Shown here: positions 22,531 through 25,364 of the stretch, in pieces
How the letters are laid out: each line of letters opens with the position of its first letter
Numbering within the stretch: position 1 is the stretch's first letter
NCBI RefSeq assembly: GCF_009659535.1
Contig: NZ_VJZZ01000008.1
Location: forward strand, 1 to 64,000
Source of the DNA: Aggregicoccus sp. 17bor-14
Lineage (GTDB): Bacteria > Myxococcota > Myxococcia > Myxococcales > Myxococcaceae
DNA: 64,000 nt
Direction: 5' to 3'
The notes under the pieces: model-generated
Told to the model about the DNA's origin: nothing
Database searches by the model: none
The model's input: the letters and a program-made list of their open reading frames with translations, nothing else
Made by a program: the position numbers and the translations under genes

Positions 22531-22983
22531 ATGGCCGCCTCCTCCGACATGCCCGTGCTCGGCGAGCTGCTCCCCGGCGAGCTGCTGGAAGACATCGCGC
22601 GGGTGCGCCGGGTGCTGGCGCGGGAGCTGGAGACCATCAACGAGTACGAGGCCTTCGCCGCGCGCTCGAGCAGCCCCGAGGTGCGCGCCTTCTTCAGCCA
22701 CCTCGCCCAGGAAGAGAAGGAGCACGTGGCCGAGGCCACCGCCATGCTCCGCCGCCTGGACGCCGGCCAGGAAGCGCACTTCGCCCGGGGCCTTGCTCCC
22801 GGCCACTTCGAGGGGGCCCCCTCCCCTGCCGCCCCGGCCCCTGCGCCCGACACCGGCCTGGAGGGCTCGCGCGTGGCGCTGCAGCCGCAGCGCGTGGTGT
22901 ACGGGCTCGCCGCCCCTCCTGCCGCCCGCGCGGCGCCGCTCACCGTGGGCTCGCTCAAGCCGCCGCGCGGCGGCAGCCGCTGA
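22531..22983 (+). CDS. encB: Ferritin-like (EncFtn/EncB-type hemiferritin) encapsulin cargo protein with a C-terminal cargo-loading peptide
   Basis: EYEA and EEKEH di-iron ligand motifs on two helices; Pro/Ala-rich linker; C-terminal LTVGSLKPPRGGSR; AGGAG Shine-Dalgarno 4 nt before the ATG. Confidence 0.7.
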   Translation: MAASSDMPVLGELLPGELLEDIARVRRVLARELETINEYEAFAARSSSPEVRAFFSHLAQEEKEHVAEATAMLRRLDAGQEAHFARGLAPGHFEGAPSPAAPAPAPDTGLEGSRVALQPQRVVYGLAAPPAARAAPLTVGSLKPPRGGSR

Positions 22984-23013
22984 CCCGCCTTTCCCGCCTG
23001 AAGGAGCACGCCG

Positions 23014-23883
23014 ATGCCTGACTTCCTGGGACACGCCGAGAACCCGCTGCGCGAGGAGGAGTGGGCGCGCCTCAACGAGACCGTCATCCAGGTGGCCCGC
23101 CGCTCGCTCGTGGGGCGCCGCATCCTGGACATCTACGGCCCGCTGGGCGCCGGGGTGCAGACGGTGCCTCACGACGAGTACCAGGGCGTCTCCCCGGGCG
23201 CGGTGGACATCGTGGGCGAGCAGGAGACGGCGCCGGTGTTCACGGACGTGCGGCGCTTCAAGACCATCCCGCTCATCTACAAGGACTTCCTGCTGCACTG
23301 GCGCGACATCGAGGCGGCGCGCACGCACAACATGCCGCTGGACGTCTCGGCCGCCGCGGGCGCCGCCGCCTTCTGCGCGCAGCAGGAGGACGAGCTCATC
23401 TTCTACGGCGACCCCAAGCTGGGCCACGAGGGGCTGATGAACGCGGCCGGGCGGCTCACGGCGACGCTCGGGGACTGGAGCCAGCCGGGCAACGCGTACC
23501 TCTCCATCGTGGAGGCCACGCGCCAGCTCAACGAGCACGGCCACTACGGGCCCTACGCCGTCGTCGTCAGCCCCCGCCTCTACTCGCTCATGCACCGCAT
23601 CTACGAGAAGACGGGCGTGCTGGAGATCGAGACCATCCGCCAGCTCGCGGCGGACGGCGTGTACCAGTCCAACCGCCTGCGCGGCGATGCGGGCGTGGTG
23701 GTTTCCACGGGCCGTGAGAACATGGACCTGGCCGTGTCCATGGACATGGTGGCGGCGTACCTCGGTGCCGCCCAGATGAACCACCCCTTCCGCGTGCTCG
23801 AGGCGCTCATCCTGCGCATCAAGCACCCGGACTCCATCTGCACCCTCGAGCCGGCAGCAGCGGCGCCCGCGGCGCTGCGCTAG
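23014..23883 (+). CDS. encA: Family 1 encapsulin nanocompartment shell protein (HK97 fold, linocin M18-like)
   Basis: 289 aa; N-terminus [24 protein letters not shown] and C-terminal region closely match Myxococcus-type EncA (from memory); AAGGAG Shine-Dalgarno 7 nt upstream. Confidence 0.85.
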
Positions 23884-23897
23884 GAGCGGTGACGTAC

Positions 23898-25364
23898 ATG
23901 GCGAAGGTCCTGGTCGTCGACGACGAGACGAACCTGCGCAAGGTGCTGGCCACCATGCTGCGCAGGGACGGCTACGACGTGACCGTGGCGCAGGACGGCG
24001 AGCAGGCACTCGCCGAGTTCCAGAAGAGCGGCGCGGACATCGTCGTCACCGACCTGGTGATGCCCAAGCTGGGCGGCCTCGAGCTGCTCAAGGCGGTGAA
24101 CGCCGCCAACTCGGACGTGCCGGTGATCATCATCACCGCGCACGGCACGGTGGACTCGGCCGTCGAGGCGATCAAGCTGGGTGCCTTCGACTACATCACC
24201 AAGCCCTTCGACCAGTCGGAGCTCTCGGCGGTCATCGCCAAGGCGGCCAAGGCGCACGCCATCGCCCAGCGCTCGGTGCGCGCGGACGCCCGGGCGCGCG
24301 CGGCGATCATCGGCGACTCGCCGCAGATGCAGGAGGTCTACAAGATCATCGACAAGGTGGCGGACACGCCCTCCACCGTCCTGCTCACCGGCGAGAGCGG
24401 CACCGGCAAGGAGCTGGTGGCCACGGCGCTGCACGGCGCGAGCGGCCGGCGCGACAAGCCCTTCATCAAGATCAACTGCGCCGCCATCCCCGCCACCCTG
24501 CTGGAGAGCGAGCTGTTCGGCTACGAGCGCGGCGCCTTCACCGGCGCGGTGACGAGCAAGCCCGGCCGCTTCGAGCTCGCGGACGGCGGCACCCTTTTCC
24601 TCGACGAGATCGGCGAGATCCCGGTGGAGATGCAGGTGAAGCTGCTGCGCGCGCTGCAGGAGAGCGAGTTCGAGCGCGTGGGCGGCATCAAGACCACCCG
24701 CGTGGACGTGCGGCTCGTCGCGGCGACGAACCGCGACCTGCAGCAGGAGATCGAGGCGGGGCGCTTCCGCAAGGACCTGTACTACCGGCTCGCGGTGGTG
24801 CCCATCGCGCTGCCGGCGCTGCGCGAGCGCCGCAGCGACGTGCCCATGCTCGCGCGCCACTTCCTCGAGAAGTACAACCGCAAGCTCAACAAGCGCATCG
24901 AGGGGCTCGACGACGACGCGCTCGCCGCGCTGCAGGCCTACCCCTGGCCGGGCAACATCCGCGAGCTCGAGAACCTGATGGAGCGCGTGCTGCTCTTCGC
25001 GGACGGCCCCCTCATCACGCTCAAGGATCTCCCCGAGCAGGTGCGCCACGGCGCTGCTCTCGCCACCGCCCAGTCCGCCGCCCCCTCCCAGGCCCTGGCG
25101 CTCCCCCTCCTGCACACCGGGGAGGCAGGCGGCGAGGGCAGCCTCGAAGGAAGCCTGGAGGGCGGCCTCAAGGACATCATCCGGATGAAGGCCGCGGAGC
25201 TCGAGCGGGACCTCATCGCGCGCGCCCTGGATGAGACGGGCGGCAACGTCACCCGGGCTGCAAAATTGCTGCAGATCAGTCGCAAGAGCCTGCAGACGAA
25301 GATGAAGGAGTTCGGCCTGCGCGACAGCGCGCCGGGCGCCTCCGACGACGGCGCTGACGAGTAG
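23898..25364 (+). CDS. Sigma-54-dependent response regulator (NtrC family: REC, AAA+, Fis-HTH)
   Basis: Receiver Asp pocket (VVDDE...D), Walker [15 protein letters not shown] sigma54-contact motif, C-terminal HTH; start 14 nt after the encA stop with the Shine-Dalgarno overlapping that stop. Confidence 0.8.

Follow-up and report, generated by a model that had tools for sequence, protein, structure and literature searches.

An encapsulin locus of Aggregicoccus sp. 17bor-14 corresponding to the iron-storage cluster of Myxococcus xanthus

We analysed a stretch of 64,000 nucleotides from Aggregicoccus sp. 17bor-14 (the window) and found in it a genuine iron-storage nanocompartment locus, which corresponds directly to the well-studied system of Myxococcus xanthus. 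Five genes in the order encB, encA, sigma-54 activator gene, M23 peptidase gene and outer-membrane-like gene very probably constitute, in Aggregicoccus/Simulacricoccus sp. 17bor-14, the ortholog of the M. xanthus iron-storage encapsulin cluster (MXAN_3557 to MXAN_3553). An initial annotation had described encB, encA and the activator gene from the DNA alone and had likened them to M. xanthus EncA/EncB iron storage. On checking, the coordinates and sequence features of all three genes were re-found, and the likeness was borne out by 87% identity of EncA and by a matching gene order. The type of system is already known, as are the NCBI names for the encB, encA and activator proteins, and the locus is an ordinary ortholog. 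It carries little weight as a discovery; its value is comparative, as a clean ortholog of the best-studied multi-cargo encapsulin.

Shell and cargo

The shell gene encA (23014..23883, forward strand; NCBI WP_153867399.1) starts 30 nt past the encB stop codon and codes for a family-1 encapsulin shell protein of 289 aa, which has the HK97 fold. In profile searches, EncA scored 285.7 bits against NF041155 (family 1 encapsulin; cutoff 100) and 228.7 bits against PF04454 (Linocin_M18; cutoff 24.3). Scores and coordinates confirm the initial annotation, which had placed a family-1 HK97-fold shell gene 30 nt after a cargo gene. Residues 1-284 matched the solved M. xanthus EncA (4PT2/7S20) with 563 bits, and the identity to the M. 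xanthus ortholog was 87% by tblastn. Family 1 is also characterized by a cargo with targeting peptide encoded in the same operon, and encB, 30 nt upstream of encA, provides one. EncA would self-assemble into an HK97-fold icosahedral shell that, by analogy, is expected to be mainly T=3 and about 32 nm in size.

An origin of the shell gene as a remnant of a phage or prophage HK97 capsid, or, following older annotation, as a member of a secondary-metabolite cluster for a 'linocin M18 bacteriocin', could be read from a weak secondary Pfam match to Major_capside (33.6 bits) and from a 2019 table that still lists the M. xanthus cluster under 'Secondary metabolite cluster (Bacteriocin)'. The probability of either is practically nil. 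The 563-bit match is to a shell whose structure has been determined by both cryo-EM and crystallography, a cargo gene with targeting peptide adjoins the shell gene, and the surroundings are without terminase, portal and protease genes; the flanks consist of murJ, an S1-domain gene and rsmI-like and yraN-like genes. A phage-capsid or bacteriocin identity is thus refuted by the family scores, the match to solved EncA and the housekeeping flanks.

The cargo gene encB (22531..22983, forward strand) encodes a 150-aa ferritin-like protein of the EncFtn type (NCBI WP_228530853.1, 'ferritin'). In profile searches, EncB was above the family threshold of NF058679 EncB_fam (94.5 bits; cutoff 90) and above that of the EncFtn-like PF22277 (30.5 bits; cutoff 27). 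Because its linker and tail have diverged from those of M. xanthus EncB, it stayed under the cutoff of the M. xanthus-specific 'exception' model NF058678 (172 bits; cutoff 210). Judged by these profiles, the 17bor-14 cargo is a member of the EncB family outside the narrow M. xanthus-level model. With the solved M. xanthus EncB (7S5C), 119.9 bits were obtained. The motifs EYEA (aa 38-41) and EEKEH (aa 61-65), by which a ferritin-like cargo had been recognized in the initial annotation, are identical to the motifs of Fe-bound M. xanthus EncB, and together with the two family scores they uphold that assignment. All four residues E32, Y39, E62 and H65 aligned with the ferroxidase centre of Rhodospirillum rubrum EncFtn, the di-iron residues of which are Glu32, Tyr39, Glu62 and His65 (PMC5012862). 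From these conserved residues we predict ferroxidase activity for 17bor-14 EncB.

The cargo-loading (targeting) peptide LTVGSL (22939..22956, forward strand; EncB aa 137-142) is located eight residues ahead of the stop codon and is preceded by a Pro/Ala-rich linker. Table 2 of PMC11202242 lists PLTV(I)GS(T)L as the targeting peptide of M. xanthus EncB, and among 66 orthologous cargo ORFs, 49 contained LTVGSL, LTVGTL or LTIGSL. A six-frame search of the whole window detected no LTVGSL-like tail beyond that of EncB, which agrees with the single adjacent cargo and the LTVGSL-type C-terminus noted previously. Any EncC/EncD-like cargo genes of 17bor-14 would lie outside the window.

We propose that EncB is a two-helix EncFtn-type protein, the dimer interface of which would bring E32, Y39, E62 and H65 together in a di-iron ferroxidase centre. 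The C-terminal LTVGSL on its flexible Pro/Ala linker would tether EncB inside the EncA shell. Fe(II) would enter via the shell pores and would be oxidized and mineralized inside. Packaging of EncB in EncA and iron loading of the shell are thus predicted by analogy.

The closest comparison is with M. xanthus, where EncA, EncB, EncC and EncD are encoded by MXAN_3556, MXAN_3557, MXAN_4464 and MXAN_2410, respectively. Together with the flanking genes MXAN_3555-3553, the M. xanthus cluster matches that of 17bor-14 in gene order and orientation. Besides the 87% for EncA, identities were 55% for EncB (about 70% in the ferritin core), 79% for the activator, 63% for the M23 peptidase and 55% for the membrane-like protein. 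Both organisms have PLTVGSL as targeting peptide, one cargo gene next to the shell gene and a conserved TTGACG block upstream; they differ in genus and in the diverged EncB linker and tail.

With the EncFtn systems of R. rubrum and Haliangium ochraceum (family 1, T=1), the 17bor-14 cargo shares the two-helix ferritin-like fold, the four ferroxidase residues, the C-terminal placement of the targeting peptide and the position of the cargo gene directly upstream of the shell gene. In contrast, the targeting peptide is LTVGSL in 17bor-14 and SLGIGSLK in the R. rubrum and H. ochraceum systems, the entry-site Glu31 of EncFtn is replaced by Arg in 17bor-14 EncB, and the 17bor-14 shell is expected to belong with the larger T=3 shells such as that of M. 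xanthus. Unlike in 17bor-14, our literature search found no adjacent sigma-54 activator described for the R. rubrum and H. ochraceum systems.

The sigma-54 activator and its junction with encA

Downstream of encA, an NtrC-type sigma-54 activator (bEBP) of 488 aa is encoded at 23898..25364 on the forward strand (ATG at 23898; NCBI WP_153867400.1). It matched Sigma54_activat (PF00158) with 250 bits, Response_reg (PF00072) with 115 bits and HTH_8 (PF02954) with 49.5 bits. The REC domain (aa 4-113) contains D8, D9, D52, T80 and K102. Within the AAA+ domain (aa 137-303) we found Walker A GESGTGK (165-171), GAFTGA (212-217) and Walker B LFLDE (233-237); the protein also carries an AAA_lid, and HTH_8 spans aa 433-472. 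Its motifs identify it as a group I NtrC-type enhancer-binding protein with all phospho-acceptor and ATPase motifs intact. Against the NtrC equivalog TIGR01818 it scored 496.1 bits, under the cutoff of 558.6, and in the profile search it was also under every cutoff for AtoC, ZraR, NtrX and the remaining named equivalogs; it is therefore none of the named orthologs. The M. xanthus ortholog, with 79% identity, is likewise encoded between encA and the M23 peptidase gene. In its build (REC, AAA+ with GAFTGA, Fis-type HTH) the protein resembles group I NtrC-family bEBPs such as the M. xanthus NtrC-like activators ('Nla'), but it is without an adjacent histidine kinase, none being encoded among its six immediate neighbours. 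The activator would be a phosphorylation-dependent response regulator with its sigma-54 targets elsewhere. About 50 sigma-54 activators are encoded in each Myxococcus genome; because of this large number, a sigma-54 promoter at EncC/EncD genes would not single out this activator.

At the encA-activator junction (23881..23897, forward strand), the TAG stop codon of encA lies inside a TAGGAG (23881-23886) and the spacer is 14 nt long. The short distance and the Shine-Dalgarno sequence overlapping the stop, both pointed out in the initial annotation, were seen as described. In M. xanthus, by contrast, the spacer is 30 nt long and has no Shine-Dalgarno sequence. Across orthologous loci the sequence of the spacer varied, and in most other genera it contained no Shine-Dalgarno sequence. 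The junction folded no better than shuffled sequence (z −0.53). A scan for terminator-like sites found none from 22531 to 25364, and its sole match (22466-22482) was upstream of encB. This agrees with the previous claim that no terminator occurs until past the regulator gene, where a hairpin with a T-run is present (25396-25430). The 14-nt spacing and the lack of a terminator suggest that encB, encA and the activator gene are probably co-transcribed, with transcription running from encB through encA into the activator gene. Since the 14-nt spacer is too short to hold a promoter and no terminator intervenes, any production of the shell would be accompanied by production of the activator. The activator probably stays at a low level, owing to weak or re-initiating translation.

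In the M. xanthus developmental RNA-seq tables (eLife 2019 supplement), encB is assigned to group 5, whereas group 1 contains the peptidase and membrane genes; encA and the activator gene are unlisted. The five genes of the cluster therefore do not behave as a single rigid unit, which counts against transcription of all five together.

The probable encB promoter and the possible regulatory role of the activator

A probable encB promoter is located at 22491..22520 (forward strand), with a −35 element TTGACG (22491-22496), an 18-nt spacer and a non-canonical −10-like element GAAGGT (22515-22520). The encB ATG follows 10 nt past GAAGGT, so that the leader would be very short or absent. In the window and 24 orthologous upstream regions, the block 'TTTc.CTTGACGG' was invariant and 'GC.A.GGTC' was conserved. 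This conservation suggests a sigma-70-like promoter. Transcription most likely begins there, at a promoter located 35-40 nt before the encB ATG, so that the mRNA would have almost no leader. Against this stand the non-canonical −10 element and a generic TTGACA/TATAAT scan, which did not call the encB promoter. An AGGAG is present just upstream of the encB ATG in 17bor-14; a near-leaderless start would leave it unused, which counts against such a start.

The sigma-54 promoter pattern TGGCAC-N5-TTGC with up to two mismatches had no match in 22042-23092, and across the window it had 48 matches compared with 68 expected. By weighted scoring of 65 upstream regions, no conserved −24/−12 element was detected upstream of encB; the best score was 14.5 of 20.5, at a position that was not conserved. 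On the grounds of both searches, a sigma-54 promoter upstream of encB was rejected. A candidate before the peptidase gene was also rejected, as in the conserved block 'CGGTTTCGG.CCCGC' only the GG-N10-GC spacing fits and the remaining consensus positions fail. One perfect TGGCAC-N5-TTGC was found in the window at 11204-11218 on the reverse strand, 12.7 kb off, and is not tied to the activator.

The activator was at most 35 nt past the encA stop codon in 65 of 79 informative loci of the Myxococcaceae/Archangiaceae type (median spacer 22 nt). A colinear same-strand block of encB, encA, activator gene, M23 peptidase gene and outer-membrane-like gene was present in 53 loci, and M. xanthus AM003 (L031) had the same arrangement gene for gene, with the 30-nt spacer and the 79% identical activator. 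For M. xanthus DK1622, the order of the genes and their coordinates are available from the eLife 2019 supplement. Even at 72-74% EncA identity (L068, L069) the activator was retained beside the shell gene. The link was interrupted by insertions of 4-5.5 kb in four loci (L056, L077, L078, L080) and was absent in six deeper loci. The neighbourhood, including housekeeping murJ and rsmI/yraN, was equally syntenic, and conservation alone is therefore no proof of a functional link. Novelty of the arrangement is not supported by these counts, M. xanthus itself having it. The statement in the initial annotation that such an activator is not usually described for encapsulins stands in so far as encapsulin reviews are silent on it. 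In the open-access papers searched we found no co-mention of encapsulins with sigma-54, NtrC or enhancer-binding proteins, and no mention of MXAN_3555.

Several relations between the activator and the shell operon were considered. It is unlikely that the activator gene is transcribed independently from a promoter in the 3' part of encA, the adjacency being inherited synteny without regulatory meaning. Regulators are generally expressed far below shell proteins, of which an encapsulin particle has 180 copies, and a separate promoter would suit this difference, as would the unconserved spacers, the mostly missing Shine-Dalgarno sequences and a link to encA that is dispensable in some lineages. 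But spacers of −4 to 32 nt are too short for an intergenic promoter, and within encA there was no sigma-70-like match and no good sigma-54 match. Nor were the synonymous sites at the encA 3' end unusually constrained: a conserved promoter embedded there was looked for in 67 orthologs and no distinctive drop was seen (third-position entropy 0.46-0.55, compared with 0.42-0.93 elsewhere). Positive feedback, by which the activator would autoregulate the operon via a sigma-54 promoter upstream of encB, has only a general precedent, as bEBP genes often sit next to their target operons. The poor and positionally unconserved −24/−12 score, the missing TGGCAC-N5-TTGC match and the TTGACG −35 element in the conserved block instead all speak against it. 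With a sigma-70-like rather than a sigma-54 promoter before encB, autoregulation is thus very improbable.

The activator had also been called dedicated to the encapsulin. Such a regulator, co-expressed with the shell, would turn on sigma-54 promoters of encapsulin-related genes, for example distal encC/encD or the downstream peptidase and membrane genes, and so couple the compartment to a wider starvation or development programme; we consider this doubtful. According to papers that cite studies of the M. xanthus cluster, ΔencA and ΔencF mutants of M. xanthus have pleiotropic developmental and phase-variation phenotypes (PMC8229669, PMC9321382, PMC8049743), which would fit a dedicated regulator, as would the very tight junction kept in 65 loci of at least eight genera and the activator's place beside the shell gene even at 72-74% EncA identity. 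On the other side are the lack of a −24/−12 element upstream of encB and in the spacer before the peptidase gene, the equal synteny of housekeeping genes, and the link that is broken in four loci and absent in six deeper ones. Moreover, deletion of cluster genes other than encA and encF reportedly gave no tan-locked phenotype in the 2019 study by Kim, in which the M. xanthus cluster is said to have been named encBAEFG (MXAN_3557-3553). The word 'dedicated' is thus unproven. In essentially all Myxococcaceae/Archangiaceae, the shell and activator genes would share a transcript, and there is a small chance that the activator belongs functionally to the encapsulin system. It would then be produced only together with the compartment, would be switched on by a kinase encoded elsewhere and would drive sigma-54 promoters at distal cargo genes or developmental genes. 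If true, this would explain the pleiotropic fruiting-body and phase-variation defects of M. xanthus encapsulin-cluster mutants, and no encapsulin would have had a dedicated transcriptional regulator described for it before.

The comparative value of the locus lies in the alignment of about 65 loci, in which encBA has three stable companions, namely the genes for the sigma-54 activator, for the M23 peptidase and for the membrane-like protein. Comparison of the loci further points to an operon promoter that is sigma-70-type, nearly leaderless and conserved, not sigma-54, and to a conserved hairpin after the activator gene. Companions, promoter and hairpin are concrete handles on the control of encapsulin expression and may help to explain the developmental defects of encapsulin-cluster mutants. 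The question of regulation is best pursued in M. xanthus, not in 17bor-14.

The hairpin after the activator gene and the downstream genes

A GC-rich terminator- or attenuator-like hairpin follows the activator gene at 25396..25430 (forward strand), with a stem formed by 25396-25401 and 25418-25423 and then TTTTT (25426-25430). Its folding energy was −23.3 kcal/mol (z −2.32). Orthologs have a conserved hairpin at this position, with 83.7% of cells pairing compared with 28-52% in slid controls. Covariation was modest: in a gapless 32-nt alignment with explicit structure it was reached by 18 of 500 shuffles, which is moderate support. RNAalifold returned zero pairs for the spacer after the activator gene from a rough alignment that included unaligned coding ends. 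In comparison with M. xanthus, the 17bor-14 hairpin carries a T-run. It may act as an attenuator and so limit how much transcription reaches the peptidase and membrane-protein genes.

The M23 metallopeptidase gene (25457..26569, forward strand; PF01551, 70.2 bits) encodes a protein with an N-terminal membrane anchor or signal and is the ortholog of MXAN_3554, which is listed for strain DK1622 as 'peptidase M23' at the equivalent position in the eLife 2019 supplement. The last gene of the block, at 26613..27953 (forward strand), is the ortholog of MXAN_3553 and has its probable true start at the ATG at 26694. Its product had no match in Pfam/NCBIfam. A signal-peptide-like N-terminus after M28 and the C-terminus ...LAFNF suggest that this outer-membrane-like protein is located at the outer membrane.

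Shell, cargo and activator genes

The three genes that the initial annotation had placed on the plus strand were found exactly as described. encB (22531-22983) encodes a ferritin-like cargo protein of 150 aa, encA (23014-23883) starts 30 nt past the encB stop codon and encodes a shell protein of 289 aa, and the ATG of the NtrC-type sigma-54 activator gene (23898-25364) lies 14 nt past the TAG of encA, with TAGGAG (23881-23886) spanning that stop codon. EncA is a family-1 encapsulin, as had been proposed, scoring 285.7 bits against the family-1 model NF041155 (cutoff 100) and 228.7 bits against PF04454; comparison with the solved structures of the M. 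xanthus EncA shell (4PT2, 7S20) gave 563 bits for residues 1-284. The ferritin-like nature of the cargo was borne out as well: EncB scored 94.5 bits against the EncB-family model, for which the cutoff is 90, also passed PF22277, and reached 119.9 bits against the solved ferritin domain of M. xanthus EncB. The motifs EYEA (aa 38-41), EEKEH (aa 61-65) and LTVGSL (aa 137-142, 8 residues short of the C-terminus) are present. An alignment demonstrated that EncB keeps E32, Y39, E62 and H65, the four residues of the di-iron ferroxidase centre that R. rubrum EncFtn forms at its dimer interface (PMC5012862). The tail agrees with the published targeting peptide PLTV(I)GS(T)L (PMC11202242), and 49 of 66 orthologous cargo ORFs have a tail of LTVGSL type. 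Family membership and the conservation of catalytic and targeting residues are established. EncA would be expected to assemble into a mostly T=3 shell, in which EncB oligomers, held by LTVGSL, may oxidise Fe(II) for mineral storage.

The activator carries a REC domain (D8, D9, D52, T80, K102), an AAA+ domain with Walker A, GAFTGA and Walker B, an AAA lid and a Fis-type HTH; judged by these domains, it is a complete group-I enhancer-binding protein, in line with the NtrC-type assignment made before. It reaches no named equivalog cutoff (e.g. NtrC, 496 vs 558.6 bits) and is therefore an NtrC-like activator, not NtrC. The linker between lid and HTH (aa ~381-425; 25038-25172) is hypervariable among orthologs, with an amino acid identity of 0.07-0.30 vs >0.8 in the flanking domains, and contains a short repeat in the window protein.

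The locus is a real feature; the system to which it belongs as an ordinary ortholog is known and already annotated. An exact-sequence look-up of four of the proteins assigned each of them to Aggregicoccus/Simulacricoccus sp. 17bor-14 (Myxococcaceae). NCBI names EncA 'family 1 encapsulin nanocompartment shell protein', EncB 'ferritin', the activator 'sigma-54-dependent transcriptional regulator' and the peptidase encoded downstream (25457-26569) 'M23 family metallopeptidase'. The cargo protein is listed by NCBI in two start versions, of 150 aa (WP_228530853.1; 22531) and 144 aa (MBF5043936.1; 22549); we favour the 150-aa form because its ATGGC start is conserved in the ortholog alignment.

Gene order among relatives

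A scan with one genome per species yielded 80 loci encoding shell relatives, which were searched by tblastn with six window proteins. The order murJ (opposite strand), encB, encA, activator, M23 peptidase and membrane-like protein (26613-27953) is colinear in 53 loci, from genera including Myxococcus, Corallococcus, Pyxidicoccus, Citreicoccus, Archangium, Hyalangium and Vitiosangium and from many MAGs. The suggested likeness to the M. xanthus system holds: in strain AM003, the order is identical to that in the window, with identities of 87% (EncA), 55% (EncB), 79% (activator), 63% (peptidase) and 55% (membrane-like protein). In M. xanthus DK1622, MXAN_3557 (encB, 4141282-4141758), MXAN_3554 (peptidase M23) and MXAN_3553 (hypothetical) have coordinates on a single strand (developmental transcriptome supplement, eLife 2019). 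The 2.3-kb gap between MXAN_3557 and MXAN_3554 fits encA plus the activator gene.

The initial annotation had regarded an activator gene next to encA as unusual. This was not upheld, since in 65/79 informative loci the activator ATG lies no more than 35 nt past the encA stop codon (median 22 nt; 30 nt in M. xanthus; a 4-nt overlap in two loci). This tight spacing, M. xanthus included, indicates that adjacency is the ancestral state of the whole clade; it is conserved and had previously been met in M. xanthus. The arrangement is widespread yet not universal. In one locus (L056), encA is separated from the activator gene by genes for a P-type ATPase and a WD40-like protein; in another (L077), the intervening genes include one for a large protein with CarboxypepD_reg repeats, and two more loci (L078, L080) show a similar gap of ~4 kb. 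No activator ortholog was detected nearby in six loci, all with an EncA identity of ≤72%.

Three loci deserve separate mention. In a Myxococcota MAG (L056:5941-12848), murJ directly abuts encA and no encB was detected; the ATPase there is of the cation type and the WD40-like gene encodes WD40/PD40 repeats. In a MAG labelled Planctomycetota (L076:6001-7163; EncA relative 63% identical), a ferritin-like cargo gene with the tail GLTVGTL lies downstream of the shell gene, not upstream. An assembly labelled Comamonas sp. KCTC 72670 (BNCN01000016.1) carries a complete Myxococcus-type block from murJ to the membrane-like protein (EncA 87%, activator 80% identical to the window) and is probably mislabelled or contaminated.

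Transcription of the unit

Aligning the encB upstream region with 24 orthologous regions revealed two conserved blocks. The proximal block contains invariant CTTGACGG (window TTGACG, 22491-22496), followed after 18 nt by conserved GC.A.GGTC (window GAAGGT, 22515-22520; M. xanthus CAAGGGTC). We interpret it as a promoter of the sigma-70 type whose non-canonical -10 resembles that of M. xanthus vegA (AAGGGT). Because only 10 nt separate the end of the -10-like element from the encB ATG, which is likewise conserved, the encB mRNA would be nearly leaderless across the family, its leader being very short or absent. Most orthologs lack a Shine-Dalgarno sequence before encB; the window has AGGAG at 22522-22526. 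The distal block (~22401-22460) contains TAGAGT in orthologs and TACAGT in the window on the opposite strand, which probably serves a divergent murJ promoter as its -10 (22401-22474, minus strand). The mechanically called MurJ start (22474) thus probably makes the ORF too long; conservation of the N-terminus sets in near MASRVMGLV (~22294/22279).

As previously claimed, the terminator scan found none inside the encB-encA-activator unit. The spacer between encB and encA, which carries GAAGGAG, is free of structure, and the fold of the encA-activator junction is no stronger than that of shuffled sequence (z -0.53). Third codon positions near the encA 3′ end are under no special constraint (67 orthologs), which gives no sign that a conserved promoter is embedded there.

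Directly 3′ of the activator gene lies a GC-rich hairpin followed by TTTTT (25396-25430; -23.3 kcal/mol, z -2.32). Orthologs have a hairpin at the same site, with CCGAAA, a variable inner stem and TTTCGG, in the form CCGAAAT...GTTTCGG or, in Myxococcus, GCGGAATTCCGC. In the ortholog hairpin, 83.7% of cells pair vs 28-52% in slid controls, and changes include A-U to G-C and G-U; covariation is modest, 18/500 shuffles reaching the observed level. Inner stems differ between genera and still pair (window 25383-25435; e.g. L042:8332-8363 and, in M. xanthus AM003, L031:8331-8362). The ~35 nt between it and the peptidase ATG are too few for a promoter, which makes an attenuator or stabiliser more likely than a full stop and read-through into the two downstream genes plausible. 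The palindrome could alternatively be a protein-binding site. Internal modulation clearly exists, since in M. xanthus developmental RNA-seq encB falls into group 5 and the peptidase and membrane-like protein genes into group 1; the last gene of the cluster is the most abundant, and encA and the activator gene are absent from the regulated-gene lists (eLife 2019). In the RNA-seq table, the cluster still goes by 'Secondary metabolite cluster (Bacteriocin)', a designation inherited from the name linocin-M18. A single mRNA from the TTGACG promoter would cover encB, encA, the activator gene and, partly, the two downstream genes, and weak initiation or re-initiation would probably keep translation of the activator low.

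Sigma-54 elements and the role of the activator

A sigma-54 promoter is absent upstream of encB, where neither the window nor the orthologous upstream regions contain a conserved -24/-12 element. The operon is therefore unlikely to be switched on by its own activator. The activator presumably requires phosphorylation of D52 by an unlinked kinase and works at sigma-54 promoters elsewhere. We consider it improbable that it genuinely belongs to the encapsulin regulon.

The M. xanthus cluster (MXAN_3557-3553) is reportedly named encBAEFG in the abstract of Kim 2019; if so, the activator would be EncE. A tan-phase-locked phenotype is said to occur there only for the encA and encF deletions. MXAN_3555, the activator gene, was not mentioned in the open-access literature searched. 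Nor did we find an open-access paper linking encapsulins with sigma-54, NtrC or enhancer-binding proteins, in agreement with the earlier remark that such an arrangement is not usually described; reviews on encapsulins pass over the activator. According to three articles, ΔencA and ΔencF mutants were analysed by Kim 2019 (PMC8229669, PMC9321382, PMC8049743).

The sole perfect sigma-54 consensus in the window (TGGCACcgcgcTTGC; 11204-11218, minus strand) is located 12.7 kb from the activator gene, to which we found no link. An ATG preceded by AGGAGG follows 43 nt downstream of the site (11160, minus strand), and the ORF starting there encodes 165 aa without a Pfam match and with a signal-peptide-like N-terminus. 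This site is plausibly a genuine sigma-54 promoter.
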